Shown here: piece after piece, positions 40,292 through 64,000 of the stretch | Layout of the letters: the number at the start of each line of letters is the position of its first letter | Position numbering within the stretch: position 1 is the stretch's first letter | Virus record (IMG/VR): IMGVR_UViG_3300028392_002123 | Source: a virus | Taxonomy: Duplodnaviria > Caudoviricetes | Strand: one strand, 5' to 3' | Length of the DNA: 64,000 nt | Notes under the pieces: model-generated | Told to the model about the DNA's origin: nothing | The model's input: only the letters and a program-made list of their open reading frames with translations | Databases searched by the model: none | Position numbers and translations under genes: made by a program

Positions 40292-40846
40292 TTAATTCCT
40301 TTTAAACAACGAGAGGTAATTGGAAAAATCATTTCCCTGAAACCTTATACTAGCACATATCCTATGGCTATTTCCATTAATGGTAACATTATGTGGTACT
40401 GTTGTTTTTACTAAACAAGGTCCGTCGGACCATGCATAGCTTTCTATTAAATCACAGTCTTTTAAATCAAATCCCACGTATGAGTTTGTTCCTGTACGTG
40501 CCGGCCCGTCCCAACTAGGTAAAGATTTTTCTTTATACCAATTCATTGTCCATGGACTATCACAGCGTATCCAATTTATTGCGGCACGGTCGCCTAAATC
40601 ATATGAACCATCAACATGTATAGTCATATAATAAGGTGCAGGAGGGATAACAAAAATTTGTACCTCTCTCAATTTGAGGCCCATGCCTTTATATGATTTA
40701 ACTAATTCTGGTCTAAGAATAGTTTCGTCTTTGTAATATAGTAATTGTCCGTCAGTCTTGAGTGTTAGTTCGGGTGTTAGATCTGGGATAAAAGGCCACG
40801 CTTGCCATTCGGGTATGGAAATTTTATAATGAAGATCATCGCTCAT
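40292..40846 (-). CDS. 2OG-Fe(II) oxygenase-like protein
   Basis: HVD...AINW...MNWY...[10 protein letters not shown]...RICASIRF. Confidence 0.6.
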
Positions 40847-40847
40847 A

Positions 40848-41357
40848 TTACAAATTGTTATCCATGATAAACTCTTTGACTATGTCAAAGGTATATGGAG
40901 GATTGAAACCCAGAGTAAAAACAACACGCGGTTCATTGAAGTTCAAAACTGCATGTTCAGTTTTTGTGTCAATTAGATAATAATGTCGTGGTTTATATTT
41001 TAACTCTTTGATATGATGCAGGTCTTCGCCTGTTTCATATGGTCGTCCCCAAAACGAATGACTGTCCCAGCCTGTCATTAACATATTAATAGCACAGGTT
41101 CTCACAGTATCTTTGTGAAATTTATAGTGCAGATTAGATCCCATTTTAAGAAAAACAGGCGACGTGGATTTTATATCAAATTCGTTATACAGCGCCGCCA
41201 TGACTGGATCACTGCGTATCAACATTTCTGGTAATACCAGTATGTCGAAACTGTATTGATTAAACCATTTAGCATCAGGCATGTCAATACACCCTGCAAT
41301 TTGATCATATATACTGCACGGAGTCTTAAGTTCGTAAAAGCATTCGTTTATTATCAT
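40848..41357 (-). CDS. 2OG-Fe(II) oxygenase-like protein
   Basis: FHKD..R.CAIN...EHAVLN...R. Confidence 0.6.
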   Translation of the reverse strand: MIINECFYELKTPCSIYDQIAGCIDMPDAKWFNQYSFDILVLPEMLIRSDPVMAALYNEFDIKSTSPVFLKMGSNLHYKFHKDTVRTCAINMLMTGWDSHSFWGRPYETGEDLHHIKELKYKPRHYYLIDTKTEHAVLNFNEPRVVFTLGFNPPYTFDIVKEFIMDNNL

Positions 41358-41369
41358 TATAATATTTAC

Positions 41370-41951
41370 CTAGTAAGCATCTTGGTAATCTTCTAGTACA
41401 TACCAGCCTAATTTTTTAAGGTCTGCTCGGATCTCATCCGTGACCACCATTTCCGAAACAAATGCCTGTGCTTCTTTATATCTAACTTGCTGTTCTTCTG
41501 TTAGTGCATTAAATTCTTCAGGAGACAATTCGTCATTATTTTTTATACCACTACAGTACCAATCAATGTAGTCGCCCTTTTCCTGCATGTCAGCAATGAT
41601 GCCACCGGCATAGCGCCAGCTGGCACTCCAAGTCTGGCCAGCCAATCTGGGTATGAATTCATTTTTTTGAAAAGTATTATTGCAAATGGCCGCGTAAAGG
41701 TTTTGTGCATAGACGTCGTTGTCGCGAACTTTTTCCAATATCCACGGAGTACTGCGTAGATCATACTCCATGTTATTTTCTTGCCAAGCGGGATCGGCTT
41801 CCCGTTGTTGTTTATCAATATCCCAACTATCGTAATATTCGGCCATGGCCTTGGTGTCCTCGTCATTTTCCGGAGTCCGGCCATCTTCGGCTCGTCGTTT
41901 TAGGAAGTTTTCTTTTTGAAAAGTATTTCTTTGTGGACTGTTTGACAGCAT
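41370..41951 (-). CDS. Hypothetical protein
   Basis: 193 aa; YAQNLYAAICNN, SWRYAGGIIADM, GDYIDWYCSG segments. Confidence 0.65.
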   Translation of the reverse strand: MLSNSPQRNTFQKENFLKRRAEDGRTPENDEDTKAMAEYYDSWDIDKQQREADPAWQENNMEYDLRSTPWILEKVRDNDVYAQNLYAAICNNTFQKNEFIPRLAGQTWSASWRYAGGIIADMQEKGDYIDWYCSGIKNNDELSPEEFNALTEEQQVRYKEAQAFVSEMVVTDEIRADLKKLGWYVLEDYQDAY

Positions 41952-41957
41952 ATTAGT

Positions 41958-42679: not shown

Positions 42680-42688
42680 GTATGCTAT

Positions 42689-43258
42689 TTATAGTAAGCC
42701 TTCTTGCGTTAATATTTGTACAGTACGATCGCTGAGTGCAATCTCTGTGCGTACATTTAACTCAAGCAATTCGTCTTGCAATTTTTGTTTAGATTTTTTT
42801 ACTAAACTGACCAAGATTTTAAAACCTTTGATATCTTCTTCTTGGAAGATACTGGTAGAAACTGTGTTTTCGAAGCCGTAGATACTGCGACTGTCTTCTT
42901 TACGATTTCTAATTTTTGCCAATTTACCTTCGATGTGTGTGGGATCTTCTCGAACTGCCTTGGCCATGAATGCGGTATAACTTTGGATTTGTTTATCCAA
43001 GTGTGCAATGTCTGCCAAGCGCATGTCAACACCCACTTGATTATTGGCCGCACTAGTGGCTTTGCGAATTTCATAGACCGCAGACACCAAAGTGTCTTTA
43101 CGTGCAAGATCTTCTTTGAATTTCATAACTGCTTTGGCTAGTTCTGGTTCAACAGTTTGAAATTCATTGAGACTGACTTCAGTGACCAAATTAATAGACT
43201 TGATCGCGTCATTGATGCTATTTTGCAGTACAGAAGCTTTACGTAAACTAATGTTCAT
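42689..43258 (-). CDS. Hypothetical coiled-coil protein
   Basis: 189 aa; AAGGA SD. Confidence 0.65.
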   Translation of the reverse strand: MNISLRKASVLQNSINDAIKSINLVTEVSLNEFQTVEPELAKAVMKFKEDLARKDTLVSAVYEIRKATSAANNQVGVDMRLADIAHLDKQIQSYTAFMAKAVREDPTHIEGKLAKIRNRKEDSRSIYGFENTVSTSIFQEEDIKGFKILVSLVKKSKQKLQDELLELNVRTEIALSDRTVQILTQEGLL

Positions 43259-43267
43259 TTTTATTCC

Positions 43268-43937: not shown

Positions 43938-44567
43938 TTATTCTAGTCTGCTAAATCCCCATTGACGTTCTTCACACCACCAACAGTGACCGCAGTGGCC
44001 ACTAGTTAGTATAAGATCTTCGCAGGACCTTGTCAAGGGAAATATATCGTCTAATACATTCAATTCCTTATATATACCCGAAATTACTTTTTTATCAACG
44101 TTGATAAAAGGTCTATAATTCCTATTGTTATTCCCTGTGTAAAATGGTTTAATATCATAGGGATTGCGTTCTGATCGAGTACGACTATTATCTGTAAATT
44201 TATCTGTTACTTCTACCGGAGGATTTGCTGTTACCCCTGTGTACAAATAATTTATTTTTCCCGAGTTAAGATCTGCAATACCATGCGTTAACATATTACT
44301 TTCTGTTTGTTCATCGACAAACACAACATGATGATAGACATTATTTCTATTTAACATATCTATACATTTGCCAATTACTTTTAATGCATAATGCGGTGCT
44401 GTTCTACTTTTTGCTTTATTGGCACATGTATAAACATGCACAGCACCTTTTGCATATTTCATTAAAATATACAGCAATATTGAACTGTCGGCTCCTCCGC
44501 TGACACTAACACCGATCGGTCCATCATGAATGTCAATGTTAACATTATTAATTGTCAACGTCTGCAT
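43938..44567 (-). CDS. QueC-like PP-loop ATPase (7-cyano-7-deazaguanine synthase family)
   Basis: [10 protein letters not shown]-loop and C-terminal TRSC...[10 protein letters not shown] Zn site. Likely start ATG 44567. Confidence 0.7.
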
Positions 44568-44568
44568 G

Positions 44569-44853
44569 TTATTCTGTTTTATTTGATTCTTCAGCGTCCC
44601 GACGGAACTCATCTTCCATCCACAACATTTTTCGATGCTGATACATTTCTTCGCTGAGTCCGTGCCAGCCGATACACTTGCCTGTTGGGCTACGGCCGCA
44701 ACCACACTTGCCAAATTCTTCTGCGTTTTCTTTTACTCTTACCTGCATAGCCTGTTCCTTATTTTTATTAAAAATTCTGTCCCAATTGGATGCATAAGTT
44801 TCTGCACCAATGCTAAATGGACGAGGTGAGCTACCTTTGCCGCCATCACTCAT
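44569..44853 (-). CDS. Small protein with CDGSH-like Cys3His motif
   Basis: [15 protein letters not shown]. Confidence 0.55.
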
Positions 44854-45056: not shown

Positions 45057-45128
45057 ACTAATCTCCAGGTATATAATATATAACGCATGAACTTAGTCTG
45101 TCGTTGACAACACACTATAAATATTTTG

Positions 45129-46509: not shown

Positions 46510-47313
46510 TTAATTTTTAAACTTGGCTAAATTTAACTTAACCAATAATTCTATTGTTCTTGCCGCTGGATCGAGTTCATACCATTTTCTTCCATAGCGA
46601 TAATTCGCAGGATCATCATGATGATTTCGATGCCAAGCATCTCCGTTATTAATATTCAGCATAACCAGTACTAGGCTGTTACTACCTTTATTATTACCTC
46701 CAACAGGTAATAACCATGCAGGAGTGTTATGACCCCATGCGTTAATGCTATGCATCTTGTTGATGGTCAATCCCAACACAGCAATCCAAAATAACAACAA
46801 TTCTGGACTAATAAAATAAAGCGACAATAACCATACTGCATTTATTACCCAACTATATCTTGCAAACCATGCATGAGTAGGGTCCTTGGCTAGATCGGGC
46901 GCATACTGTATTTTAATGGGAGTAAAATACGTACAAAACTGAATCCACAGCCTAGATTTAAAATAAGGACTATGCGGATCACGTTCGGTGTCAGCATGTC
47001 TATGATGTTGTCTATGCACAGCGGCCCAACCTATGCTGGTGCCAACCATGGTAATTGTGAATAAAAATAATCCTAGAATATTCAGATATTTCTTAGGTAC
47101 CCAGGATCTATGCGACCATGCTCTGTGTGCAAAAATAGTAAGATTAATTCCTAGTGCGTATACAGTAATCAACAGTATTGCAATGGAACTAAAATTAAAA
47201 TTATTTGCAATCCAATATACACTGACTATCAAACTAGTGATGCCCACGGTGCTTAACAACCAAGGTTCAATTTTAACTCTGTCTAAGACCATATTATTCT
47301 TTAATGAATACAT
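46510..47313 (-). CDS. Membrane fatty-acid desaturase (delta-9-like), third paralog
   Basis: His boxes HRAWSH, HRQHHRH, HRNHH; DTERDPHSP; WYELDP. Confidence 0.88.
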   Translation of the reverse strand: MYSLKNNMVLDRVKIEPWLLSTVGITSLIVSVYWIANNFNFSSIAILLITVYALGINLTIFAHRAWSHRSWVPKKYLNILGLFLFTITMVGTSIGWAAVHRQHHRHADTERDPHSPYFKSRLWIQFCTYFTPIKIQYAPDLAKDPTHAWFARYSWVINAVWLLSLYFISPELLLFWIAVLGLTINKMHSINAWGHNTPAWLLPVGGNNKGSNSLVLVMLNINNGDAWHRNHHDDPANYRYGRKWYELDPAARTIELLVKLNLAKFKN

Positions 47314-49476: not shown

Positions 49477-50037
49477 TCAAATTAATCTTTGATTGACCAC
49501 ATCCCAATTGATGATGCGCCAAATATTTTCTAGATACTTTTTCTTGTCAGCTTGATAGTCTAGGGCCCAGGCGTGTTCCCACCAATCAATTAACAGTACA
49601 ATTCTATCTGTGTTGCCTGTGATGCTGTGGTTGGCAATGGTCTGTATACGACCTGCGCGATCTAAAAAGATCCAACCACTGCCCTGTATGGCCATGGCCT
49701 TGGCACTGACTTGATCTTTAAATTCATCAAAGCTTTTAAAATTACGAGTGATAAAGTCCTTGGAATTTCCAGTAGGTTGATTGCCGGACTTGGGTGCTTG
49801 TAGCTGTGGAAAGAATATATTGTGCAAGTCTGCACCATTCTTATTGAACTTGGCGTCACCTTCGCCTGAGTTATAACGATCTACATAGGCCTTGGCCAAG
49901 GTGCCGTAGTGATAGTCTAGGGTAGCTTCGCTCATCACGGGTGCCAAGTCTGTTCTTTTATAGGGCAGTTTGTTAAGGCTAAGAGTCAACTTAGTGCCTT
50001 CAACCACCATGATATATCTTCTAATATCGTATTGCAT
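49477..50037 (-). CDS. sod: Fe/Mn superoxide dismutase
   Basis: LPY...LAPVMSE.TLDYH, LHNIFF, GSGW, DWWEHA..LDY; four metal ligands retained. Confidence 0.9.
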   Translation of the reverse strand: MQYDIRRYIMVVEGTKLTLSLNKLPYKRTDLAPVMSEATLDYHYGTLAKAYVDRYNSGEGDAKFNKNGADLHNIFFPQLQAPKSGNQPTGNSKDFITRNFKSFDEFKDQVSAKAMAIQGSGWIFLDRAGRIQTIANHSITGNTDRIVLLIDWWEHAWALDYQADKKKYLENIWRIINWDVVNQRLI

Positions 50038-50040
50038 ATG

Positions 50041-50056
50041 ATTATTTATAAATAAT
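50041..50056. promoter_or_regulatory. Palindromic bidirectional T4 late-type promoter (ATTATTTATAAATAAT)
   Basis: Perfect 16 bp palindrome giving TATAAATA on both strands, each 5 nt before a divergent ATG. Confidence 0.75.
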
Positions 50057-50059
50057 TAC

Positions 50060-51229: not shown

Positions 51230-51230
51230 T

Positions 51231-51437
51231 TTAACTTTTCCATTCGGAGGCCGCGGACCAGGGCTTGAGGCTGTGTTTAGCCATTAAAAATGTGCGCTCA
51301 CCGGGCTGTTTGCATACAGTGATAAACTCTACACCGTCAATATTTTTAACCTGAGTATAATTTTCACAGTACCAAACATCGCCAGTTAGATCGTTTTTTA
51401 ACAATCGTGCTCGCACGGTACTATTGTTTTTCTTCAT
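51231..51437 (-). CDS. Hypothetical protein
   Basis: Likely start ATG 51437; the longer track ORF overlaps the tRNA. Confidence 0.55.
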   Translation of the reverse strand: MKKNNSTVRARLLKNDLTGDVWYCENYTQVKNIDGVEFITVCKQPGERTFLMAKHSLKPWSAASEWKS

Positions 51438-51476
51438 AAGATAAGACAGCAATTTATAGTAATTGCCAACTATAAT

Positions 51477-51627: not shown

Positions 51628-52272
51628 ATGCATAGTAATAAATTTAAAGAAACATTCTCCATGGAAAATGCAAAGTTGCCCGTGGGTTTTCAGGACTTAG
51701 ACAGTGATCTGGACCAAAAAGAAGTTCAGGAGTTAATTGACTATATCCACACATTAGACTTAGATTTTTTAACCATGGGCCAAGGTACACGTGGTAATCA
51801 TTTTTATGGCAGTACGTTTTTACGATTACCTGACAGGATTCTTTATGAAGATATAATTCCACAGCCAACTTGGGATAGTTTTTGGCGCTGGGCCCAATTA
51901 CCCAAGAATCCAGACCGAGAAAGAATATATGAAGAACTTAAATTTAAGCTAAGGCCAGCAATTACATCAATGTGCGAAAGTTTGTCTAAATTTACCGGTC
52001 GACGACATTTTCCCATGGGCATAGAAATAAACATTATGCCGCCTAATTCTAGAATTGAAACTCATATTGACAAACATCCTCGAGTTGAGGAAACACACAG
52101 AGTTCACTTAGTACTGGAAACTAACCCAGGCGCACGTATGTTCTGTGGACGTGAATCGCGCCACTGTCCGCAGGGCGCTGTGTTTATTTTCAATAATAAA
52201 ATGAGTCATGCTGTGATAAATGGTGACACTGATCGCAGTCATTTAGTTGTGGACTTTTTAACCTATCGTTAA
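51628..52272 (+). CDS. Aspartyl/asparaginyl beta-hydroxylase-like 2OG oxygenase
   Basis: MPPNSRIETHID...RVHLVL.TN...FIFNNKMSHAVING.TDRSHLVVD; ATG 5 nt after TAAATA. Confidence 0.72.
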   Translation: MHSNKFKETFSMENAKLPVGFQDLDSDLDQKEVQELIDYIHTLDLDFLTMGQGTRGNHFYGSTFLRLPDRILYEDIIPQPTWDSFWRWAQLPKNPDRERIYEELKFKLRPAITSMCESLSKFTGRRHFPMGIEINIMPPNSRIETHIDKHPRVEETHRVHLVLETNPGARMFCGRESRHCPQGAVFIFNNKMSHAVINGDTDRSHLVVDFLTYR

Positions 52273-52631
52273 TCTGCCTGTCTAGTTAGATAATATTTGC
52301 GTAGCTTTTCTGCGCCAAAGTGTTTGTGCATACTAGCTTCAACAGTGGCAGAATCAAAGGGCTTGCAACTAAAAACGTCTAGATAAATTTGGCCCAGGCC
52401 ATCAACAAAGTGAGCTACAATGCTGGAAGTAACAATGACCTGTACCACAGTGAATCCTGCTTTGTCTGGAAATTCACCGGCAGTATATTCGATTCTGGGT
52501 TCGCCAATGGGTTTCATATCTATGTCCTTGACCAAATTTCGAATCCAAGCGTCTACATTTTTGTAGTCCGACATTAATTCTGCGTTGCAACCGCCACAGT
52601 CAATGATTAGATGATAGCCCCAGTATTCCAT
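52269..52631 (-). CDS. speD: S-adenosylmethionine decarboxylase proenzyme
   Basis: WGYHLIID, G.TVVQVI.TSSI.AHF, YLDVFSCKPFD. Confidence 0.8.
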   Translation of the reverse strand: MEYWGYHLIIDCGGCNAELMSDYKNVDAWIRNLVKDIDMKPIGEPRIEYTAGEFPDKAGFTVVQVIVTSSIVAHFVDGLGQIYLDVFSCKPFDSATVEASMHKHFGAEKLRKYYLTRQAD

Positions 52632-52717: not shown

Positions 52718-53341
52718 GTGAGCTACTACATGAAATTAAAATTGCCGGCCGATCCATTTAAATTCGGAGCAGCCAGAGAAAGTCTAAGAAAAATCACCGG
52801 CGGATATAATATTGTCAAACCTGAGGAAATACTCAATGACCAAGTCATGGACACTTTTGCCACGTGGTCATTGACTCCAAAATTTGTCAGCTTGTTTGGC
52901 CGCAACGATCAGGACAGTAAAATAGAAGACCGCATGATACACACTGACGTGGCTATGAATCGCGACGGCGCCACGTGGCGTAAGTTAATATTTGGCATTA
53001 ATTGGGAAATAGAACAAAGCGAAAATATATTTTCTTGGTGGGACATGTCTAAATTAAAAGAATGCTGGCCCGACGAACAGCTCGGTGAATTCAGTAAATA
53101 TAAAATACTAAATGGTATACACTATGTAAATCGAGGATTTTTAGGTATACCTGACCTAGCAGTTAAACTAGATGAAACTGTGATCTCTGGACCCACTGCG
53201 GTGCGTACAGAAATTCCACATATGACCTTGTATACCAGTCCCACTTATAAAAGACTGGGAATCAGTGTAAGATTTGACGAATCTAAATTTAATTCCTGGG
53301 CGGACGTTGTTGAATTATTAAAACCCCATGAGCTATCATAA
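52718..53341 (+). CDS. 2OG-Fe(II) oxygenase-like protein
   Basis: IHTD...GINW...WW...VRTEIPH...RLGISVRF. Confidence 0.6.
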   Translation: MSYYMKLKLPADPFKFGAARESLRKITGGYNIVKPEEILNDQVMDTFATWSLTPKFVSLFGRNDQDSKIEDRMIHTDVAMNRDGATWRKLIFGINWEIEQSENIFSWWDMSKLKECWPDEQLGEFSKYKILNGIHYVNRGFLGIPDLAVKLDETVISGPTAVRTEIPHMTLYTSPTYKRLGISVRFDESKFNSWADVVELLKPHELS

Positions 53342-53972: not shown

Positions 53973-55453
53973 ATGTAATTTTAGTCAATGGCATCTATGA
54001 CTTGATGCCCAGTAGAAGTCTTGGTCCTTACTTGCTAAGACATGTGTTAGCCAAGAATGGCTATACCTGTCAAGTAATCGATCACTGTCAGGAATTCACA
54101 GCCGACGAACTCTACGCTACTATCAAACACTTTATCACCAAGGACACAGTATGCTTGGGATTCAGTACTACATTCTGGCGCGACATAGAACGTAAGATAT
54201 GGAACAACAATGGCGGCATGCCGCCTAACTTAGACACAGCCAGTCGTAGAATTAAACAGGAATATCCCCATATTAAACTAGTGCTAGGTGGTGCAGGCAT
54301 ACGCAATGTGGGTGCCAAGGTGGATCACGTTGACGCACTGGTAGTGGGTGAAGCCGAAGACCTGTTCATTGAACTCTTAGATCACTGGACCAAAGGCACA
54401 GCAGAACCTCCACGTAAAACAAATACAACAGTGAACAAGCCCTACTACAATCAATGTATAAACAAAGATTATGATGTCAGTACCTGCGACTTTATGTGGA
54501 GTTTCAGCGACGCAATTCTGCCCGGAGAACCCCTGCCCTTGGAAACAGCCAGGGGTTGTATTTTTAAGTGCAAGTTTTGTAGTTATCCGCACTTGGGTAA
54601 AAAGAAAATGGACTACTTAAAACCCATAGAACACATACGCGAACACATGATGCACAACTATGAACGTTGGGGTACACGACACTATATCATGCTGGATGAC
54701 ACATTCAATGACAGTGAACACAAGATAGACACACTCTTGGACATGACTCGTCGATTGCCTTTTAAAATAGGCTATGTTGCTTATATTAGAGCTGACTTGG
54801 TGCATAGATTCAAAGGACAGGCGGAAAAGCTACAGGAGTCCGGACTTGAAAGCTGTTTCTTTGGACTTGAAAGTCTACACCCCCAGGCCAGTCAAGCAGT
54901 GGGCAAGGGCTGGAGTGGTCGACATGCCAGAGAATATATACCGCATTTACTGCACGACATATGGCAGGATAAGGTCAATGTGACCACAGGCTTTATTGCA
55001 GGCCTACCCGGAGAAGACGCTGACAGTTTGCTGGACACACTTAAATGGGTCAATGACAATGGCATCATGACATTCTGGTTGGGCTTGGGTATCAGCAGTC
55101 CTGCCAGCTTGGCCGCAGGCAGCATGGATGGTGTGGCCTTTTACAGTGAGTTTGAACGTAACGCTGACAAATACGGCTATAAATTTGACAGCAAAGGTTG
55201 GTGGTACAATGATCTATGGACACATCATACTGCGGAAAAGTTTGCCATGGAACGGCTTAACTATTATAGAAAACTTAAACGTATTAGCTGTTGGTTCCAT
55301 ATTCAGCTACGTGCCTTTGGCTACACAGACGACGAACTATGGGCCATTGCCGGCAGTCAACTCACACACAATGGCTTTTTAACAGATCAGACATTTCTGG
55401 ACCGCAGAGACAAATACGTGGCTGACTATAAGAAATTGTTGTTGACACTATAA
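53969..55453 (+). CDS. B12-binding-domain radical SAM protein
   Basis: N-terminal cobalamin-binding-like domain (LGFSTTF, LVLGG, VGEAE); ETARGCIFKCKFC (CxxxCxxC); DDTFND; FGLESL. Confidence 0.88.
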   Translation: MNVILVNGIYDLMPSRSLGPYLLRHVLAKNGYTCQVIDHCQEFTADELYATIKHFITKDTVCLGFSTTFWRDIERKIWNNNGGMPPNLDTASRRIKQEYPHIKLVLGGAGIRNVGAKVDHVDALVVGEAEDLFIELLDHWTKGTAEPPRKTNTTVNKPYYNQCINKDYDVSTCDFMWSFSDAILPGEPLPLETARGCIFKCKFCSYPHLGKKKMDYLKPIEHIREHMMHNYERWGTRHYIMLDDTFNDSEHKIDTLLDMTRRLPFKIGYVAYIRADLVHRFKGQAEKLQESGLESCFFGLESLHPQASQAVGKGWSGRHAREYIPHLLHDIWQDKVNVTTGFIAGLPGEDADSLLDTLKWVNDNGIMTFWLGLGISSPASLAAGSMDGVAFYSEFERNADKYGYKFDSKGWWYNDLWTHHTAEKFAMERLNYYRKLKRISCWFHIQLRAFGYTDDELWAIAGSQLTHNGFLTDQTFLDRRDKYVADYKKLLLTL

Positions 55454-56158
55454 CAAGCCCCTGCGCTGATATAAAGTTTCTAGACTACAGTCCAGGGCCA
55501 AGGCCACAACCAGTCTAAATCCCGGGCGATCAATGTCCAAACAATGAGCACAGTCTGTGCGTAAAAATGCGGCACAGTGGTTCTTATATAAACCATGTTT
55601 TGTTGTTGTAGGTTGGCCTAGGTACTGCCATTTTTCTAGATAGTCCCTGCCCTTGATGGCCAAGTATTGATAATTCCGCACACCTAGATTTTCATGATCC
55701 TGTATGCCCACCAAGGGATGACCAGGCACAACATTTTCCCACCAATGCATGGGATCATCAGGATCATATTCAATGACCACATTAAAGCGTGTTAGCACTG
55801 GCAGTCTGCGTAAAGGGTCCACTTCATCCCATTTATATCCATCAATATGCGGATATCCTGGCTGAGCTTTATTGGCATTATTGCTGAGGAACACGTCGGG
55901 CCCACAGAGTTCACTGCCCACATAATTTCTTTCAATGCCCCAGGTCGCCAAATAGTCACGTAGTTCTTCCAGGGCCCGACTGCCCTGCCATATTATTTTC
56001 TTATTAAAGAATTTGTGTTCTGCGTCTACAGTAGCGTATTTGTCATAGGCAATATACTTGTTGACAAAAGGATAATAATAAATTTGTTTAATCCATTCCA
56101 CTGCTTCAGCACTAAATTTAAAATCGCTGTGGTGATAACAATAATTTAATTCGCTCAT
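55448..56158 (-). CDS. 2OG-Fe(II) oxygenase-like protein
   Basis: PHIDG...RFN...MHWW...LRTDCAH...R. Confidence 0.55.
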   Translation of the reverse strand: MSELNYCYHHSDFKFSAEAVEWIKQIYYYPFVNKYIAYDKYATVDAEHKFFNKKIIWQGSRALEELRDYLATWGIERNYVGSELCGPDVFLSNNANKAQPGYPHIDGYKWDEVDPLRRLPVLTRFNVVIEYDPDDPMHWWENVVPGHPLVGIQDHENLGVRNYQYLAIKGRDYLEKWQYLGQPTTTKHGLYKNHCAAFLRTDCAHCLDIDRPGFRLVVALALDCSLETLYQRRGLL

Positions 56159-56188
56159 AGTCGTATTTATTATTCATAAATATTCATT

Positions 56189-57637
56189 ATGCACGTCATA
56201 TTTTTAAACAGTATATACACACAAATTCCGCAAAGAAGTCTTGGTCCGTATTTGCTCAAACATCAATTAGCCAAGAATAATTATCAAAGTCAAGTCATTG
56301 ATTTTTGTCAAGACTGGCATGCTGATCAAATTTTACTGCTATTTAAAAAATTTGCCACAGACAAAACTCTGTGTTTGGCACTGAGCAGTACATTTTGGTT
56401 TGACGAAACACAGACTTATTATACCTATGACAACGGAATTCCGCCCAACATTTATCAAGCCGTTAAATTAATTAAACAACAGTTTCCCCAGGTTAAAATC
56501 GTTTTGGGCGGAGCGCACAGTAGTTATATGCGTTATAGAATAGAAGACGTGGACTGTGTGTTCATTGGAGAAAGCGAAGACACACTGGTAGAAGTGTTGG
56601 ACCATTGGTGCCGGGCCGGCCAAGAACCTGTCAGTGAAATTAATCCCGCCACAGGCAAATTAACATACAGAGATCCAAGGAATAAAAAATATCAAATACA
56701 GACCTGTGATTTTATGTGGCAGGAAGAAGACTGTATTATCAACAAAGAAGCTCTGCCCATGGAAACTGCTAGAGGCTGTATATTTAAATGTAGTTTTTGC
56801 GCTTATCCGCACTTGGGTAAAAAGAAATTCGATTATTTAAAACCCAATGATGCCATTAAAAATTATTTAATTAACAATTATAATCGTTGGCAGACCACTA
56901 GTTATATCATCTTAGATGACACTTTCAATGACAGCGAATATAAAATAGATGGATTTTTAGATATTACTAAAAGCCTGCCTTTTAGCATAGAATACGCGGC
57001 CTATATTAGAGCAGACTTGGTCTATAGGTTTGAAGGCATGGCAGACAAGCTGGCAGAAACAGGCCTGCGTGGAGCTTTCTTTGGCATTGAAAGCCTGCAC
57101 CCCCGGGCCAGTCAGATTGTGGGCAAAGGCTGGAGCGGTAGACATGCTCGTGAGTTTGTGCCCAGACTGGTACATGACACGTGGCAGAATAAGATCACTG
57201 CACATTGTGGATTAATTGTGGGACTGCCCGGAGAAACTCGTGAAGATTTAACTACAAGTTTAACCTGGGCCAATGACAACATGATCAATGTTATTTTCTT
57301 TGGCCTGCAGGTCACTAATAACTTACACGAGCGTAGCTATATCAGTGAATTCGAGCGTAACGCTGACAAATATGGATTTAAATTTGACGAGCATGGAAAA
57401 TGGTATAATGACACGTGGACAAGAAATTCTGTTTTAGAATTCAGCGCACAATTAAATCCTCAGCGCAGGCGCATGAATTATTCGGGATTTAATCACGTGG
57501 CCCTGCACACACTGGGCTATACCAATGAAGAAATAATGAACACACACCAGGATCTACTAGTGCGTAACAGTGAGGAATTTCGTCAGCGTAAACAACAATT
57601 CCTCAGGGCCTATTGGAATAAAATTATCAATTTATAA
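56189..57637 (+). CDS. B12-binding-domain radical SAM protein, paralog
   Basis: ETARGCIFKCSFC; same architecture as 53969-55453. Confidence 0.88.
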   Translation: MHVIFLNSIYTQIPQRSLGPYLLKHQLAKNNYQSQVIDFCQDWHADQILLLFKKFATDKTLCLALSSTFWFDETQTYYTYDNGIPPNIYQAVKLIKQQFPQVKIVLGGAHSSYMRYRIEDVDCVFIGESEDTLVEVLDHWCRAGQEPVSEINPATGKLTYRDPRNKKYQIQTCDFMWQEEDCIINKEALPMETARGCIFKCSFCAYPHLGKKKFDYLKPNDAIKNYLINNYNRWQTTSYIILDDTFNDSEYKIDGFLDITKSLPFSIEYAAYIRADLVYRFEGMADKLAETGLRGAFFGIESLHPRASQIVGKGWSGRHAREFVPRLVHDTWQNKITAHCGLIVGLPGETREDLTTSLTWANDNMINVIFFGLQVTNNLHERSYISEFERNADKYGFKFDEHGKWYNDTWTRNSVLEFSAQLNPQRRRMNYSGFNHVALHTLGYTNEEIMNTHQDLLVRNSEEFRQRKQQFLRAYWNKIINL

Positions 57638-57646
57638 ATAACAACA

Positions 57647-58207
57647 ATGATGTATAAAAAATTAATTCTGCCCCGGGATTTAATCACGGAAATTCAAATA
57701 ACTGCCATTGAGGAAATGTCTACATTTGATGTTAATTCTGGACAGCTACATTTCTTAATTAAACCACAGCATGTCATGGGCAAATATTTAAAAATGACCT
57801 ATCCCACTCTGCCCTTTTTATATAATTGTTTATTATTTCATCGTCCCCCTAATTTTCAACAGGCTCTGCACATAGACTGTAACAATGAAGATCCGCCGCA
57901 GTTGATCAACTGTGCCATTAATATACCCCTGCAAAACTGTGACGACAGCTACATGGAATGGTACTCGGGTGCGTATACCACAGAAGTCAATGCCACAGTG
58001 GGTCAGGATGGTAGAACTAGAAAATTCGTTGAACTAGCATGGCAGGGAGAACCCCAGTTAATAGAAAAAACAATAATAGATCAGCCCACGCTGGTACGTG
58101 TTAATCAGCCACATAGAATCAGTTGTATTAGTCGTGTGCGTAGTTTAATTACTTTTAGATTCAGCAAGAATCCTGATTTTGACACAGTGGAAGCTATGAT
58201 GCTTTGA
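57647..58207 (+). CDS. 2OG-Fe(II) oxygenase-like protein
   Basis: LHID...AINIP...MEWY...LVRVNQPH...R. Confidence 0.6.
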   Translation: MMYKKLILPRDLITEIQITAIEEMSTFDVNSGQLHFLIKPQHVMGKYLKMTYPTLPFLYNCLLFHRPPNFQQALHIDCNNEDPPQLINCAINIPLQNCDDSYMEWYSGAYTTEVNATVGQDGRTRKFVELAWQGEPQLIEKTIIDQPTLVRVNQPHRISCISRVRSLITFRFSKNPDFDTVEAMML

Positions 58208-58892
58208 CATCAGCAGGTATTTCTGCAATGCCTGTGATGCGTATTTTTTCCAAGTCAAAAAAGCTACGGGGAATTAAATTCATTTCCTGGGCTCCCCATA
58301 ATAAACGTAGATAAACATCATCTCCACCTAGCTCAGACTTTGAATTTTTCAACATGGGCACAATGCTGAGACAGATTCTGGGTCGGTCCGGTGTGCCATT
58401 TTTCATTTGTACGCTGTGGGGAATTCCTGCGTTTACCACGTAGAGTCCGGACATGTCTAAATGATCTATTTCCATGACGTCCTCGGGAGGAAATGCTAGA
58501 TACTTTGTGCCAGCATTGGTCACTAACTGATGTCGATCTTCAACTCGAACCCTGGGCATGTACCAGCGCATGATATTGTCCGACTCACCTATTACATAGT
58601 TAATTTTAGCAATACAGGGTACAACTCTATGCCCGTCTACGTGTATAAAAGCATCAAAGTCTTCGCCTACACCAGGACGAAAAAATACTTCACTGTGCTT
58701 GACTACCATGCCGCCACGTAGCATCATTTCTTTAAATTGCTCACTGATATATTCGGGATCATATTTGTAGTGTGCAAAAAATGTATAAGGTTGACCTTCT
58801 TTATTCTTAGGAAACGGATAAGTTTCTAATATTGTTTCCTTGCTGGCAGGAGCTATATTTAAAATATTAATGTCTCTATATGTAAATGTCAT
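58194..58892 (-). CDS. 2OG-Fe(II) oxygenase-like protein
   Basis: IHVDG...KINY...MRWY...VNAGIPHSV...RICLS. Confidence 0.6.
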   Translation of the reverse strand: MTFTYRDINILNIAPASKETILETYPFPKNKEGQPYTFFAHYKYDPEYISEQFKEMMLRGGMVVKHSEVFFRPGVGEDFDAFIHVDGHRVVPCIAKINYVIGESDNIMRWYMPRVRVEDRHQLVTNAGTKYLAFPPEDVMEIDHLDMSGLYVVNAGIPHSVQMKNGTPDRPRICLSIVPMLKNSKSELGGDDVYLRLLWGAQEMNLIPRSFFDLEKIRITGIAEIPADVKAS

Positions 58893-59437
58893 TTTAAATA
58901 TCCTTTGAACGTGTCTTCAATTTGATTAAATTTTACTTTTAGGTTGTGTTTATTTAACAGCATAAAACTATAGCAAAGTCTAGGCACGTCAACATTTTCC
59001 ACATTGTGTAACTGTCCAGCATTGACTATGGTAGGCTCTAACAGTGAGCTTTCTGCTACCATTTCCACATCTTCCCTGGCAGCCCACATATAGGGAGTGT
59101 TGATCACTGTCATTTTAAACTGTGCAGAACAGCCGGGTCGAAGCTGCCACCAACGCATAACGCTGGCACCTGGATTAACTATAAAGTTAATTTTAATATG
59201 ATTGTCAATTTGGCGGCCGTCTAAGTGCAGAGCCCAGGGATAGTCGATGTCTGTGGGTTTTTTTAAAAATACTTCGCTGAAGCCAATTTTTAATTCTAAA
59301 CTGGCCAGCCAATCAATAAAATTAACGTCAATTAATTCTCTGTCTAATTTAATTTGTCCGTGTGCAGTGGGAAATTTAACTTCGGGCAGGGACATTTTAA
59401 ATGGCAGCGTTAATTCTCTATAATATATATTTTCCAT
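58889..59437 (-). CDS. 2OG-Fe(II) oxygenase-like protein
   Basis: LHLDG...KINF...MRWW...VNAGQLHNV...RLCYS; likely start ATG 59437. Confidence 0.6.
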   Translation of the reverse strand: MENIYYRELTLPFKMSLPEVKFPTAHGQIKLDRELIDVNFIDWLASLELKIGFSEVFLKKPTDIDYPWALHLDGRQIDNHIKINFIVNPGASVMRWWQLRPGCSAQFKMTVINTPYMWAAREDVEMVAESSLLEPTIVNAGQLHNVENVDVPRLCYSFMLLNKHNLKVKFNQIEDTFKGYLK

Positions 59438-59439
59438 GA

Positions 59440-60219
59440 TTAATTCTTGGCTATCCAAAAGCTTAGATGACAGCGTGTCTGTTCTTCTCTGGGCTGATAC
59501 CAACCCACGCCCACTGACGCCACTGAGTGCATGTAGTCCTTGGTGAATATTTCATAGACCTGACCATCCGCGGGAATATAGTGTCCGACAAAGTCCATGG
59601 GCTGTTGTGCTTCTTCTTGATCAAAGCCTGCTTTCCATTTAAAATTTCTAGCACTGAATAATAGTACGTGCCCGGGGTTGGTCCACAGGGGAATATGAAA
59701 TCTATTTTCCACGGGATCGTCTTTGTGCCAGTAAAGTCCCTGACTGGTACCATTGACTGTTCTATTCTGACAGCGTATGCGTATGGGTGCTTGAAATTTA
59801 TCCTGCATGTAATTGTGCAGTTCTTCCACTATGGTGCCTTTAAATCTAGGCACCAGCTCGGCTAATTGATCATCGGTCATAGCAGGTTCTTCAACGCCCA
59901 CACCGTCAACAACACGACCCCTGCGTCCGGTGCCGCCAAACAACTGTTGATCCAATTCAGTGAATCTAGACAGGTTAGTGGTTAAATTAATATCACCATT
60001 GGTAATTCTGCTGGGATTGACAGCGTTGTAATCATGATGCAGGCTGGCATCACACCAATCCTCTGTGCCCAACTTTTTAAGTTCAACTGTTCTACGCCAG
60101 TGATCAAATCTAATGCCCGCTAGGAATACTCTGTCGCGAACAACTTCGGTTATTTTATTCACGTCCCATTGACTGAGATCTTGTCGTACTTCATAATATT
60201 TTTTAAACAGTGACGTCAT
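59440..60219 (-). CDS. 2OG-Fe(II) oxygenase-like protein
   Basis: WHKD...RFHIPL.TNP...MHSV...RCHL. Confidence 0.6.
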   Translation of the reverse strand: MTSLFKKYYEVRQDLSQWDVNKITEVVRDRVFLAGIRFDHWRRTVELKKLGTEDWCDASLHHDYNAVNPSRITNGDINLTTNLSRFTELDQQLFGGTGRRGRVVDGVGVEEPAMTDDQLAELVPRFKGTIVEELHNYMQDKFQAPIRIRCQNRTVNGTSQGLYWHKDDPVENRFHIPLWTNPGHVLLFSARNFKWKAGFDQEEAQQPMDFVGHYIPADGQVYEIFTKDYMHSVASVGVGWYQPREEQTRCHLSFWIAKN

Positions 60220-60266
60220 GAAATTATTTATAGCAAAAATCGTTTATTTTCACTATAAATATTCAC

Positions 60267-61289
60267 ATGCCCACTAGTCCTTATTTACTGCGCTATAGAG
60301 ATCCCGAGGTTAAAGAACCCGAAAATATAGAAACCAACGAATTTATTCAAAGACAGCTGGGCCGTCGCAGTCTGCGTAATTATGATCCACAGCGTAAAAT
60401 ATCCTGGGAACAGCTCAGTTATTTGATCACTGCCGCGCAATGCAGTCCCAATGGCAGTGGCGCACAAAGTTGGAGTGTGATTGCACTGATCACTGACGAA
60501 GAAAAAAGAATATTCCGGGAAGCCGCAGGCTCTGTTCTAGACGGCACAGATCCTTTGAATAGATTAAACTATGATAACTGTAGTGTATTTTTAATTTGGA
60601 TCGCAGACAACTACAAAAATGAACAGGGTATACGCATTGTAGGCAACAAAGAACTTTCTCCAGAAGAATTAAAACTCATGCCCAAGCATATATCTGCTAC
60701 TATATCTGTGCATCCTGTGCCGGGTAGAGATGACATATTATTTGATGTTGAACAGCATGTGCAAAACTTAGATCAAAGTTATTATTCTATTAGAGCCATG
60801 CAGGACTGTATTATTGCCGCACAGACCTTTGTTATGTGTGCTGAAAGTCTGGGCATGGGCACACTATACATGGGCAGTATAGCACATTGTGAACTAGCCA
60901 GTTTTAAAAATACATTAAATTTACCCAATAAAACTTATCCCCTTTTTGGCATGTGCGTGGGCTATGAACTAGCACCAGGCAGTGATCACAACGGCATACA
61001 TATTAATAATGGGCAAAGCGACTTGTACAGAAAGATCAGATATTCCGATGCAGATTATGCAGACTGGCTGATCAAACCTGTGCAACCACAGGATATTGTT
61101 CTGCATCGTGCCAAATATAATAAAGATGTCAAGGCCAGTTTATTCAAATATAATAAAATCATTTATGAATATGTCAGCAGATTAAAATCTCGCCGGGCAA
61201 ATTATTTGGTTAGTAGAGTAGCACAGCGCATTTATAAAGTAGTTGATCAATTGGGCCTAATGATGGCCATGGGTAATCGATGGCGTTGA
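60267..61289 (+). CDS. Nitroreductase family flavoprotein (NfsA/Frp-like)
   Basis: RRSLRNY, AAQCSP...AQSW, DCIIAAQT...AESLGMGTLYMGSI, LNLP...PLFGMCVGY. Confidence 0.85.
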   Translation: MPTSPYLLRYRDPEVKEPENIETNEFIQRQLGRRSLRNYDPQRKISWEQLSYLITAAQCSPNGSGAQSWSVIALITDEEKRIFREAAGSVLDGTDPLNRLNYDNCSVFLIWIADNYKNEQGIRIVGNKELSPEELKLMPKHISATISVHPVPGRDDILFDVEQHVQNLDQSYYSIRAMQDCIIAAQTFVMCAESLGMGTLYMGSIAHCELASFKNTLNLPNKTYPLFGMCVGYELAPGSDHNGIHINNGQSDLYRKIRYSDADYADWLIKPVQPQDIVLHRAKYNKDVKASLFKYNKIIYEYVSRLKSRRANYLVSRVAQRIYKVVDQLGLMMAMGNRWR

Positions 61290-61320
61290 TCACTAAATAT
61301 TTTAAACAAGTGGAGATACT

Positions 61321-61947
61321 ATGAATTTTGCCGCGGCATATCAAATTATTGGCCGAGTCCCTGACAGTCTATTAGAAAAGGTCAACGAAGAAATTAATCA
61401 TGCACTAACAGATGCTGACTTTAATTACAAAGATAGAAACGTAGAAACCGCAGAACTAAGCTGGCTACGCTTGGACTTTATGCGGCCGCCAGAAGATAAA
61501 AATCGCATGCCATTGTACACTAGTATACTGGCAGTGATCAATCATATCACTGAAAATTATAACATTGATCCATTAAACTCTGTGAGTGTTAGTATGCTCA
61601 AGCCCCTGCAGGTCCTGGATGAGCACACCGATGGCCGCTTTTTACACAGAATTACCAATAGATATTTGGTGCCATTAATGGACAGTGAAGTTAATTATAA
61701 CTATGGTTGGTATGAAAATGAAAAGGTAATCTATCCTTTACGCTATGGCAATATCTATAGAGTTAACAATGCCATTGTTCACAGCGCATTGAATTTGGAA
61801 AATGCCGAAAGATTTAACATATTAATTGACACATGGGAGCCCAGACTCAAGGCCAAATTTAAAGATCATCAAGACTTAATGGCGGCATTAACAGTACTGG
61901 GAGTTAACTATAACTTTGAAAAACGATTGAAAGTGAAACCAAAATGA
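61321..61947 (+). CDS. Asp/Asn beta-hydroxylase-like 2OG oxygenase
   Basis: EHTD...RYLVPL...GNIYRVNNAIVHSALN...R. Confidence 0.62.
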   Translation: MNFAAAYQIIGRVPDSLLEKVNEEINHALTDADFNYKDRNVETAELSWLRLDFMRPPEDKNRMPLYTSILAVINHITENYNIDPLNSVSVSMLKPLQVLDEHTDGRFLHRITNRYLVPLMDSEVNYNYGWYENEKVIYPLRYGNIYRVNNAIVHSALNLENAERFNILIDTWEPRLKAKFKDHQDLMAALTVLGVNYNFEKRLKVKPK

Positions 61948-62168
61948 AATTTGAAGAAAGAATTCCAAGAAGCCTAAGTAAAGTAATTACTTGGAGAATT
62001 ATACTATCTATACAGTATTTCGTTATTGGCTATGTAACCATGGGAACCATAGCCAGTGCCCTGGGATTAGTGGGCATTACCACTGTGGTCAACAGTTGTA
62101 TATATTATCTACACGAACGTGCTTGGAATAAATCCAGCTGGGGCAAAAAGGTAGAAGTAGAAGCATGA
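61944..62168 (+). CDS. DUF2061-like small membrane protein
   Basis: RSLSKVITWRI...YYLHERAWNK..WG. Confidence 0.75.
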   Translation: MKFEERIPRSLSKVITWRIILSIQYFVIGYVTMGTIASALGLVGITTVVNSCIYYLHERAWNKSSWGKKVEVEA

Positions 62169-62749
62169 ACTTTGACTTGCCCTACAAGCATATAGGTCCG
62201 GTGCCCCGAGAATTATTGGAGCAGGCCGAGTCAGGAGTCATTGACTTAGAAGCGTCAGGCGCTTATAATTTTAAACACGGCGAATGGCTACGCTTGGACA
62301 GTTATTATAATCCGGATAATCATCAATTATCTGACATCGTGGGCTCGGGCCTAGTAGATCATGTCATGAGTTTCTTTCCCGGTGAAAAGTTGTTTGGGTG
62401 GAGTGTCAGTCATATACCGCCACATCAGCCCGTGATTGATCATGCTGATCGTATGTTTTTTCATAGATTTGCCAAACGTATTATTGTGCCCATCAATGAC
62501 GTGGGCAATAATGTATTAAATTGGCACTGGTCTTGGAATGATACAAGACGTTGTTATTTCTTTGAATACGGAAATATATATAGATTAAACACAGCATGGA
62601 CACATGGTGTTAAAAATTCTTCTAACAAGGTTAGAAGAGCAGTTTATTTTGATGTTATGGAAACTAAATTTTACGATAAATTCATCACACATCCTGACAT
62701 ACTAACAGTTATATTGGCCAATGCTGCCGGAGAGAGATATGTACTTTAA
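62165..62749 (+). CDS. Asp/Asn beta-hydroxylase-like 2OG oxygenase
   Basis: DHAD...RIIVPI...GNIYRLNTAWTHGVKN...R. Confidence 0.62.
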   Translation: MNFDLPYKHIGPVPRELLEQAESGVIDLEASGAYNFKHGEWLRLDSYYNPDNHQLSDIVGSGLVDHVMSFFPGEKLFGWSVSHIPPHQPVIDHADRMFFHRFAKRIIVPINDVGNNVLNWHWSWNDTRRCYFFEYGNIYRLNTAWTHGVKNSSNKVRRAVYFDVMETKFYDKFITHPDILTVILANAAGERYVL

Positions 62750-63338
62750 AAATATTGCAGAAAACGTGGGCATACTGCCCGATTACATGATAAAAGATAT
62801 CATGGCCTATGAAAGTGATATAGAACCAGTTAAAGATTATCGTGCTGTATTAGGTAAAGAAAATTTAATTCAGAATTTTGTTAAAATGTCGCCAGACCTA
62901 CAACGACAAGTAACACAGGTCAGTAGCTATATTTTATCTTTACAACTGCCTATTCTTAAGGAAATGGTCATATATGAAAGTTTATTAGTTAATATTCCCA
63001 CAGTGACCAGTACGATTGTCATGCCCACACGTTATCTATGCAGGGTGGGTGAATTAATTATTGCTCCTTTAAAAGGTGGTTGCGTCATTGAAAGCGAAGA
63101 ATTTCCCAGTAGTGTAGCATTTAAACCAGGCTACTTGTATAGGATTAACAATAGAGTCAACAGTACCTTTATGGCCACACCAGACTTTCTCTGTGTAGCA
63201 TTTAATCTCTTGGACTTTGATCTTAGACGCTACTTGATGCCCCATGATCTAAGAAGCGCATTTATTCGTCGCAAGGACGAACATTTAAATCCCGACGAAG
63301 CTCCAGACAATCCCGGAGTGCCCAAAGATGCGTACTGA
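62721..63338 (+). CDS. Degenerate paralog of the preceding oxygenases, lacking metal ligands
   Basis: Retains PGYLYRINNRV.. pattern but no HxD or distal His. Confidence 0.45.
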   Translation: MLPERDMYFKNIAENVGILPDYMIKDIMAYESDIEPVKDYRAVLGKENLIQNFVKMSPDLQRQVTQVSSYILSLQLPILKEMVIYESLLVNIPTVTSTIVMPTRYLCRVGELIIAPLKGGCVIESEEFPSSVAFKPGYLYRINNRVNSTFMATPDFLCVAFNLLDFDLRRYLMPHDLRSAFIRRKDEHLNPDEAPDNPGVPKDAY

Positions 63339-64000
63339 ACCTTTGATAGCCAAAAGCGGCCGCGAGTTATCCTGGGGCATACGTATGTATGTTGACAGCT
63401 ACGAAGAACTGGTCAGCATGGGCCGAGAAGAACTGACACGCTTGGTCTATGCTAATAAATTCTTTGCTGTGCGCGGCATGTCAGGCATGACCAAACAACA
63501 GTTCTGGGACTTGTGCAATATGTTCGGCGGAGGCTGTTGGACCAAAGAAGATTACCTTGTGGGCAAAGAACAAAACTTTCCCATAGATGATGATGGCAGT
63601 ACTGATAGAGTATTTGCGTTTTACACTAATCACGGTAATACTGCCAAGGCCATAGGTGATGCTGAAATGAGTTGGCACGTGGATATCCCACTGTGGCCCA
63701 CACACAAAGCTCCTTTACGTGCTTTTTATGCTACTAGTATACCTGACAATCGTTATGGTATCACACGCTTCGCGGATCGTGCCTATGGTTGGCTAACAAT
63801 GACTCCCGAAGAACAAGAAGAAGCTCTTAAGTGGGATTTACTATATCAAAGCTGGTACGAGCCTGGCACTAACCTAACTTGGTTGCCTGTGGTAGATACT
63901 AGTCCTGTGGACGGCAAACCCTATTTACAGTTTACCAGTTTCAGTAACAGCGGCAAAAAATACAGCCACTATGCACATGGCTGGAAAGTACATGGTTGGG
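63328..64000 (+). CDS. TauD/TfdA-family dioxygenase (3' end runs off the window)
   Basis: Not in ORF track; hand-translated from ATG 63328, open to the end: SWHVDIP, L.AFYA...P, G.TRFADRAY, LPVVDTSPVDGKPYL. Confidence 0.8.
   Translation, partial: MRTEPLIAKSGRELSWGIRMYVDSYEELVSMGREELTRLVYANKFFAVRGMSGMTKQQFWDLCNMFGGGCWTKEDYLVGKEQNFPIDDDGSTDRVFAFYTNHGNTAKAIGDAEMSWHVDIPLWPTHKAPLRAFYATSIPDNRYGITRFADRAYGWLTMTPEEQEEALKWDLLYQSWYEPGTNLTWLPVVDTSPVDGKPYLQFTSFSNSGKKYSHYAHGWKVHGW

Follow-up and report, generated by a model that had tools for sequence, protein, structure and literature searches.

What does a tailed virus gain from carrying almost twenty genes that resemble a single oxygenase superfamily? 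The question is raised by a 64,000-nucleotide stretch of viral DNA (Duplodnaviria; Caudoviricetes) from the IMG/VR record IMGVR_UViG_3300028392_002123, referred to here as the window, in which positions 40,292 to 64,000 carry an array of small genes resembling Fe(II)- and 2-oxoglutarate (2OG)-dependent oxygenases. We consider it probable, with moderate confidence, that the array is a conserved accessory island coding for some 19 soluble enzymes with the fold of Fe(II)/2OG oxygenases, which would differ in specificity and be expressed late. Judging from fold and motif, each enzyme would hold Fe(II) in an HxD...H triad and bind 2OG through an arginine about 10 residues after the distal histidine. 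It would then use O2 to hydroxylate or oxidise its substrate, releasing succinate and CO2.

The source record is 141,699 bp long, with a completeness of 41% by CheckV, and the same proteins are encoded on a 340,548-bp contig. DNA nearly identical to the window was found exclusively in freshwater metagenomes, from at least four studies. The late-type promoter boxes described below suggest that this uncultured freshwater phage of about 340 kb is probably T4-like; no match to the gp23 major capsid protein was found in the 142-kb record, which is incomplete as stated above. Genes are named here by the lower of their two coordinates, and positions beyond the window are given in genome coordinates.

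The array contains at least five oxygenase-type families

All 16 open reading frames (ORFs) that the initial annotation had listed as carrying an HxD motif and a distal histidine exist where it placed them or close by. Each carries HxD...H...R and is under purifying selection. The full array, which runs past the window edge, has about 19 intact oxygenase-type genes plus one dead copy (62721). The proposed split into at least three subfamilies is also borne out, except that the number of sequence families is at least five rather than three. The signature given for one subfamily, HxD..IN(W/F/Y)..M.W(W/Y)..V(R/N)...PH..R, was confirmed.

Paralogue families were defined by all-against-all phmmer comparisons and by iterated hidden Markov models (HMMs) run against all ORFs in the genome piece. 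Family A comprises 40292, 52718, 53328, 57647, 58194, 58889 and 74160; family B comprises 45129, 50480, 59440 and 72052; and 61321 and 62165 form a pair. Two of these genes, 72052-72771 (family B) and 74160-74768 (family A), were recovered beyond the window edge by the iterated HMMs, and a further gene located there, 71044-71694, resembles the family B members. In total, the array includes the seven family A genes with one distant branch (55448), the four family B genes with 71044, five Asp/Asn-hydroxylase-like genes, one TauD-family gene, and the catalytically dead paralogue. The island is about 35 kb long, has a conserved gene order, and continues beyond the window. Outside it, a 220-amino-acid ORF at genome coordinates -20755 to -20093 (L009) contains WNLHLD...PH...R and looks like a further 2OG-oxygenase-type gene, although it gives no Pfam match at E 0.01.

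The pattern H.[DE].{40,130}H.{8,11}R occurs in 18 of 18 candidates (the 16 listed ORFs plus 72052 and 74160) and in 13 of the 84 other ORFs of 150-320 amino acids in the genome piece (Fisher p 4.6e-12), a control that is partly circular because the ORFs had been picked by that motif. For this reason, motif conservation within families is the stronger evidence. An arginine follows the distal histidine by 9-11 residues in family A (R162), in the 55448 family (R215), and in family B (R215). In a Kyte-Doolittle scan, none of the oxygenase-like proteins has a 19-residue hydrophobic segment; the sole positives were the desaturases, DUF2061, and one buried segment of SpeD.

Families A and B, 55448, 40848, and 47742 went unmatched in Pfam (E 0.01, and E 10 for ten ORFs) and in PHROGs, where the single match, a weak one, was for 51628. 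Likewise, sequence-profile searches of the PDB with the alignments of family A, family B, and 55448 gave no meaningful match. In profile comparisons with hhalign, family B, the 61321 group, 51628, 47742, 40848, and TauD do not join. Fold and motif support placement of the array genes in the 2OG-Fe(II)-oxygenase-type superfamily.

Family A is predicted to adopt the 2OG oxygenase fold

Homologues of family A form 26 clusters among 5.8 billion proteins, and none of these clusters carries a Pfam domain. In 32 sequences, H77, N91, W103, H152, and R162 are invariant, and D79 is present in at least 90%. An AF2 model of 40292 (predicted local distance difference test score, pLDDT, 85.8; predicted template modelling score 0.84) locates the HxD motif on a strand spanning residues 76-79, with the distal histidine opening strand 152-156 and the arginine opening strand 162-169. 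When residues 1-172 were searched with VIA-align, nearly all matches were 2OG oxygenases (Z 9.1-7.5), among them ALKBH5/6/7, proline 3-hydroxylase, Ofd2, the PBCV-1 prolyl hydroxylase, and PHD2. Foldseek with the same model returned JmjC ribosomal oxygenases and cupins. The best AFDB cluster is annotated 'Fe2OG dioxygenase domain-containing protein' (template modelling score, TM, 0.62; E 2e-6), and the nearest BFVD models are unnamed proteins of uncultured Caudovirales phages (TM up to 0.77). A double-stranded beta-helix was the structural check that the initial annotation had set for these genes, and the family A model has this fold, in its 2OG-oxygenase form.

Gene 55448 has 30 homologues, and in the 20 that were aligned H104, D106, N126, W139, W140, H205, and R215 are invariant. 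Its alignment joins family A by hhalign at E 2.8e-4 and 2e-5 with all motifs in register, which is the sole significant join between families, and we treat this gene as a putative distant branch of family A.

Family B is a weaker candidate

The oxygenase assignment of family B is less well supported, with a fold that is suggestive. Its homologues form 35 clusters, or 73 in a larger library, again with no Pfam domain in any. Among 73 sequences, H204 is invariant, W130, R140, and R215 are nearly so, and H131 and D133 are present in at least 90%. In an unbiased scan of 48,161 PDB chains, about 45 of the top 50 matches are 2OG oxygenases. In addition, P0152, a match to family B at 8e-6, also matches 51628 at 4e-7.

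Asp/Asn-hydroxylase-like and TauD genes

The second subfamily of the initial annotation was described as resembling Asp/Asn hydroxylases (AspH) or LpxO. The first half of this description holds: 51628 (46.7 bits) and 61321 (25.8 bits) exceed the Pfam gathering cut-off of 22.6 bits for Asp_Arg_Hydrox (PF05118). The second half does not. LpxO is an inner-membrane enzyme, and the absence of a membrane segment from every oxygenase of the array rules out an LpxO-type membrane enzyme. PF05118 gave no match at E 0.01 to 62165, 47742, or 40848, and none even at E 10 to the last two. Their placement as probable AspH-like genes draws on paralogy for 62165 and on predicted structure for 47742 and 40848. 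The Atlas model of 40848 (pLDDT 0.85) has TM values of 0.66-0.73 to viral Asp_Arg_Hydrox and 2OG-FeII_Oxy_5 clusters, and the Atlas structure of 47742 has TM values of 0.55-0.64 to PF05118 clusters, with a feature score of 0.96. Proteins, peptides, and lipids are all conceivable substrates for the AspH-like gene products.

Genes of the 61321 and 62165 types retain the triad in three lineages. In 62721, by comparison, the HxD motif and the distal histidine are replaced, with the same loss in three phage lineages and a ratio of nonsynonymous to synonymous substitution rates (dN/dS) of 0.125. From its sequence, this gene is a conserved dead copy, which may serve as a pseudo-enzyme or a substrate-holding subunit.

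The TauD gene is cut by the window edge after residue 224, and the fragment alone has no Pfam match. When the ORF is completed from the genome (63328-64230), residues 27-291 of 300 match TauD (PF02668) with 35.2 bits and E 1.7e-8, above the gathering cut-off of 27 bits. The distal histidine, which had been predicted to lie past the edge, is found there as H270 or H273. A PDB sequence search with this protein was empty, and NCBIfam gave nothing for it or for 51628.

The island is conserved across freshwater phage lineages

In freshwater metagenomes, the gene order of the island is repeated in at least four phage lineages, namely L002, L012 (a 235-kb IMG/VR contig), L007 (an 86-kb contig), and an ENA contig. 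The common backbone includes SpeD, a family A gene, two radical S-adenosylmethionine (SAM) enzymes, further family A genes, family B, two AspH-like genes, the dead copy, TauD, genes without an assignment, and a desaturase. Amino-acid identity is 87-100% for L002, 28-85% for L012, and 24-76% for L007. Copy number varies. L012 has extra family A genes and lacks the nitroreductase, and L007 lacks 55448.

In comparison with L002, dN/dS is between 0 and 0.29 for every gene. The synonymous divergence is a mosaic, with dS of 0.035-0.09 from 53328 to 60267 and 0.17-0.94 in the flanks (52718, and from 61321 onward), a pattern suggestive of recent recombination within the island. Most paralogues in the family A tree fall into well-supported orthologue groups across phages, and the tandem pair 52718/53328 alone looks like a lineage-specific duplication. 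Because most family A paralogues represent old orthologue groups, the island appears to be a stable module rather than a recent burst of duplication. Similarly, because these old lineages are under purifying selection, the paralogues are better read as a stable set with different specificities than as redundant copies.

Late-type promoter boxes adjoin several start codons

The earlier observation that several oxygenase genes follow late-type promoters was upheld. Exact copies of TATAAATA are located 5-6 nucleotides upstream of the ATG of 45129, 57647, and 59440, and boxes with one mismatch precede 51628 and 55448. Overall, six exact and several one-mismatch copies are found 5-6 nucleotides ahead of start codons. 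Divergent gene pairs with such boxes are 49477/50060, 55448/56189, and 59440/60267. Because the boxes abut start codons, expression is likely to be late and nearly leaderless: under T4 late-promoter rules, transcripts would begin at or next to the start codon and give leaderless mRNAs.

More broadly, boxes of the form (T/C/A)ATAAATA occur at 45116-45128, 50043-50059, 56159-56188, 57633-57646, and 60225-60266, and at genome coordinates 71695-71710. They keep a fixed distance of 5-6 nucleotides from the ATG and are often divergent, with the two members of a pair sharing a near-palindromic spacer. One exact box (42686-42693) is located 6 nucleotides upstream of a tRNA-Met gene.

Gene starts were revised in three cases. 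Those of 45129 and 51628 were moved to ATG codons, the latter because the longer ORF from 51463 reads through tRNA-Gly (51477-51552). For 58889, the start is most likely the ATG at 59437, which gives 182 amino acids, as called in L002.

Neighbouring genes

The features of the island within the window are listed in Table 1. As reported initially, the oxygenase genes are interleaved with two B12-binding radical SAM enzymes, a nitroreductase, SpeD, and a desaturase. Also present in or next to the array are a second nitroreductase, nine tRNA genes, a PP-loop ATPase, an Fe/Mn superoxide dismutase, and DUF2061. A metallophosphoesterase is located nearby, as is a gene with a weak GNAT match below the Pfam cut-off. 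From 61321 to 69643 the genes are tightly spaced and overlapping, and this run includes two AspH-like genes, the dead paralogue, TauD, the weak GNAT-like gene, a desaturase, and five genes without an assignment.

Table 1. Coordinates of the oxygenase-type genes and interspersed genes of the island in the 64,000-nucleotide window (aa, amino acids; DSBH, double-stranded beta-helix)
Feature	Coordinates	Strand	Evidence or remark
Family A oxygenase-fold gene, 184 aa	40292..40846	-	HVD77-79, H152, R162; AF2 pLDDT 85.8
Small DSBH protein (predicted), 169 aa	40848..41357	-	HKD81-83, H135, R144; Atlas model
PP-loop ATPase (QueC/TilS-like)	43938..44714	-	
Family B oxygenase-like gene, 255 aa	45129..45896	+	WHRD130-133, H204, R215; TATAAATA 5 nt upstream of ATG
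Membrane fatty acid desaturase	46510..47313	-	One of four in the 142-kb piece
Asp/Asn-hydroxylase-like fold (predicted), 282 aa	47742..48590	-	HRD166-168, H231; Atlas structure
Fe/Mn superoxide dismutase	49477..50037	-	
Family B oxygenase-like gene, 249 aa	50480..51229	-	HRD134-136
Asp_Arg_Hydrox gene, 214 aa	51628..52272	+	PF05118, E 4e-12, 46.7 bits
SpeD (S-adenosylmethionine decarboxylase)	52269..52631	-	Pfam
Family A gene, 207 aa, tandem duplicate of 53328	52718..53341	+	phmmer 2e-38
Family A gene, 214 aa	53328..53972	+	Paralogy
B12-binding (class B) radical SAM enzyme, 494 aa	53969..55453	+	Pfam
Distant family A relative (putative), 236 aa	55448..56158	-	HID104-106, N126, M137xWW, H205, R215
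Second class B radical SAM enzyme, 482 aa	56189..57637	+	Paralogue of 53969, phmmer 2e-166
Family A gene, 186 aa	57647..58207	+	TATAAATA 6 nt upstream of ATG
Family A gene, 232 aa	58194..58892	-	Paralogy
Family A gene, 182 aa from ATG 59437	58889..59437	-	Longest ORF extends to 59503
Family B gene, 259 aa	59440..60219	-	HKD165-167; TATAAATA 5 nt upstream of ATG
Nitroreductase-family gene, 340 aa	60267..61289	+	Pfam
Asp_Arg_Hydrox gene, 208 aa	61321..61947	+	25.8 bits; opens 12-gene co-oriented run to 69643 (genome coordinates)
DUF2061 small membrane protein, 74 aa	61944..62168	+	
61321 paralogue, 194 aa	62165..62749	+	HAD93-95; phmmer 1e-24
Predicted catalytically dead paralogue of 61321/62165, 205 aa	62721..63338	+	HxD and distal His replaced
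TauD-family dioxygenase, cut by window edge	63328..64000	+	Full length 300 aa, end at 64230 in genome coordinates

Against NCBIfam, the radical SAM enzymes give generic class B matches only, far under the cut-offs, the best being a lipid-biosynthesis B12/radical SAM model with 81 of 360 bits. A PDB sequence search with the first of them (53969) was empty. In L007, two ORFs (11980-13460), one of 93 amino acids at the N-terminal end and one of 392, take the place of an intact second class B radical SAM gene; the break could reflect a frameshift, an assembly error, or a stop codon.

Genes for Fe-S assembly are present at 15206-19176 and 39969-40289. They encode a class V aminotransferase (SufS/NifS-like), SufB/D, and a small IscA/HesB-like protein; the last gene is directly upstream of the oxygenase array and was assigned from its sequence as a candidate. 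These phage genes could plausibly provide Fe-S clusters to the numerous radical SAM enzymes that the genome encodes.

The four membrane desaturases of the 142-kb piece are located at 31827-32606 and 46510-47313 in the window and at genome coordinates 66324-67184 and 96441-97208. Past the window edge there are also an NMO/FabK-like gene (79755-80714), a TctC-like binding protein (76686-77603), and the second nitroreductase (76030-76674). Elsewhere in the window the phage carries unusual cargo, comprising a ClpB-like AAA+ protein, a subtilase with a pro-kumamolisin domain, a CHASE2-adenylate/guanylate cyclase, CsgG, and PanB, which together with a collagen-repeat protein occupies 2161-10049, 20937-22988, 27217-28329, and 36698-37573.

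Possible functions of the island

Several observations weigh against a conserved island of late-expressed oxygenases with distinct specificities. Vertical inheritance alone could explain the conserved gene order. Late timing is read from a motif borrowed from T4, and TATAAATA is not enriched overall (9 copies in the window, with 7.4 expected), so that placement before start codons is all that stands out; moreover, no RNA run contains the window stretch. Protein hydroxylases and nucleic-acid demethylases tie as the structural neighbours of family A. For family B, the model is poor (pLDDT 62.9), the best match in the scan of PDB chains has Z 4.4, and the link to Asp_Arg_Hydrox is weak, involving one of 73 members, while none of the 41 stronger members matches Pfam. 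Lastly, hhalign finds no link among the three groups formed by family A, family B, and the AspH-like genes.

Our best guess is that family A and the class B radical SAM enzymes form a block that would modify a protein or peptide, and that the run from 61321 to 69643 would be a separate branch acting on lipids or small molecules, as hinted by its desaturase and GNAT-like gene.

A considerably less likely arrangement, along the lines of the combinatorial tailoring suggested by the initial annotation, is one coordinated tailoring pathway in which the oxygenases, radical SAM enzymes, desaturases, nitroreductase, and GNAT-like protein act serially on a single scaffold. As no scaffold synthase was seen, this scaffold could be a virion glycan or a ribosomal product, either a peptide or a protein. 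The co-oriented, overlapping genes from 61321 to 69643 and the backbone order kept in four lineages are consistent with such a pathway, in which the conserved dead paralogue could act as a substrate-holding subunit. There is also a precedent, as class B radical SAM enzymes and Asp/Asn-type hydroxylases co-occur in clusters for ribosomally synthesised and post-translationally modified peptides, for example that of polytheonamide. The collagen-repeat protein (667 amino acids, 8046-10049), about 30 kb from the array, is a further point in favour. However, neither a precursor gene nor any other substrate gene was found. The 93-amino-acid ORF between the radical SAM genes of L007 was considered as a precursor peptide and rejected, because it represents the separated N-terminal part of the second of these enzymes. 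The genes also occupy both strands and form numerous small units that each have a promoter box, tRNA genes, superoxide dismutase, and SpeD are interspersed among them, and the relatives differ in copy number and can lack the nitroreductase or 55448.

More speculatively, and in our view improbable, the island might be an oxidative tailoring factory that lacks a scaffold synthase. Here the roughly 19 specialised oxygenases would work with the desaturases and the pair of class B radical SAM enzymes, fed by the phage SUF genes and expressed late, to decorate one ribosomal phage protein or peptide, or one lipid, at many positions. Families A and B would then be new oxygenase families with this as their specific role.

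It is quite doubtful that some of the enzymes, especially those of family A, oxidise bases of DNA, RNA, or tRNA in the manner of AlkB or TET, in repair or hypermodification. ALKBH7, 5, 6, 3, and 2, AlkB, and FTO are among the best structural matches of family A (Z 8.7-7.9), and the island includes tRNA genes and a PP-loop ATPase, but protein hydroxylases score equally well and Pfam yields no AlkB or TET match, even at E 10.

We think it very unlikely that several members are cupin-fold binding proteins or pseudo-enzymes instead of oxygenases. Although 62721 is conserved despite its motif loss, and vicilins and other non-enzymatic cupins appear among the Foldseek matches, all other members keep the His, Asp, His, and Arg residues across their homologues. 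Least credible of all is a metabolic role, proposed for cyanomyoviruses (Sullivan et al. 2010, PMC3037559), in which consumption of 2OG and O2 and output of succinate shift carbon/nitrogen signalling in the host, since about 19 diverged paralogues in separate orthologue groups under purifying selection exceed what a bulk drain on 2OG needs.

Comparison with known systems

Family A shares its fold and the strand placement of HxD...H with prolyl and ribosomal hydroxylases and AlkB homologues (PHD2, PBCV-1 vCPH, Ofd2, proline 3-hydroxylase, YcfD/MINA53/NO66, and ALKBH5/6/7), and in this group too an arginine is located about 10 residues past the distal histidine. Identity to these proteins is 6-15%, no single subfamily stands out, and Asn91 and Trp103 are conserved residues of family A's own. 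Collagen prolyl 4-hydroxylases have an HxD...H...Lys motif, and family A carries arginine in place of this lysine; PBCV-1 vCPH matches family A with Z 8.4, tied with AlkB homologues and PHD2.

Relative to the AspH/LpxO/OlsC family (PF05118), the array members are short and soluble and lack a membrane anchor, with no EGF-type partner in sight. This family is connected to family B through one intermediate sequence only. The TauD/TfdA family (PF02668) is represented by 63328-64230, which scores above the cut-off across the whole domain and has no close solved or NCBIfam relative.

Expansions of 2OG oxygenase genes in phages are already known, having been reported since at least 2010. Cyanomyoviruses carry one to five such genes per genome (Sullivan et al. 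2010, PMC3037559), and Synechococcus phage S-SCSM1 has 24 copies, with families PF13640, PF13661, PF13759, and PF05721; according to the S-SCSM1 paper, the functions of these viral genes were not specifically investigated (PMC9602691). The comparison with marine cyanomyoviruses in the initial annotation agrees with this literature as far as the existence of expansions is concerned (PMC3037559, PMC9602691), but does not extend to the Pfam families reported there. None of these four families matched the ten array ORFs tested, at E up to 10; for 40848, the resemblance to a PF13759 cluster (TM 0.66) is confined to structure. Searches by tblastn with 40292 and 40848 found nothing in 50,697 GenBank phage records, and megablast of positions 50000-64000 gave no match among GenBank phages. 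Our literature searches found no paper describing this island and no substrate for phage 2OG-oxygenase expansions.

Like the cyanomyoviruses, this virus is a large tailed phage with many small, diverged genes of the 2OG-oxygenase type, which share accessory regions with speD and have tRNA genes close by. In cyanomyoviruses, however, these genes are recognised by Pfam, whereas the families described here are mostly unmatched by Pfam and PHROGs. Here they are packed with two class B radical SAM enzymes into one island of about 35 kb, with an order conserved across lineages, in phages of freshwater. These features (families outside Pfam and PHROGs, tight clustering with class B radical SAM genes, conserved order, and a freshwater habitat) set the present case apart. 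If the enzymes do modify virion or host proteins or lipids, they would add a new layer to the ways in which large phages reshape cells in oxic lake water. Compact and conserved, with orthologues of each paralogue in several phages, the island lends itself to testing better than the cyanophage genes, which are scattered. Family A offers a confident model with a defined predicted active site, and the range of testable hypotheses is narrowed by the genes nearby for radical SAM enzymes, desaturases, and Fe-S assembly.

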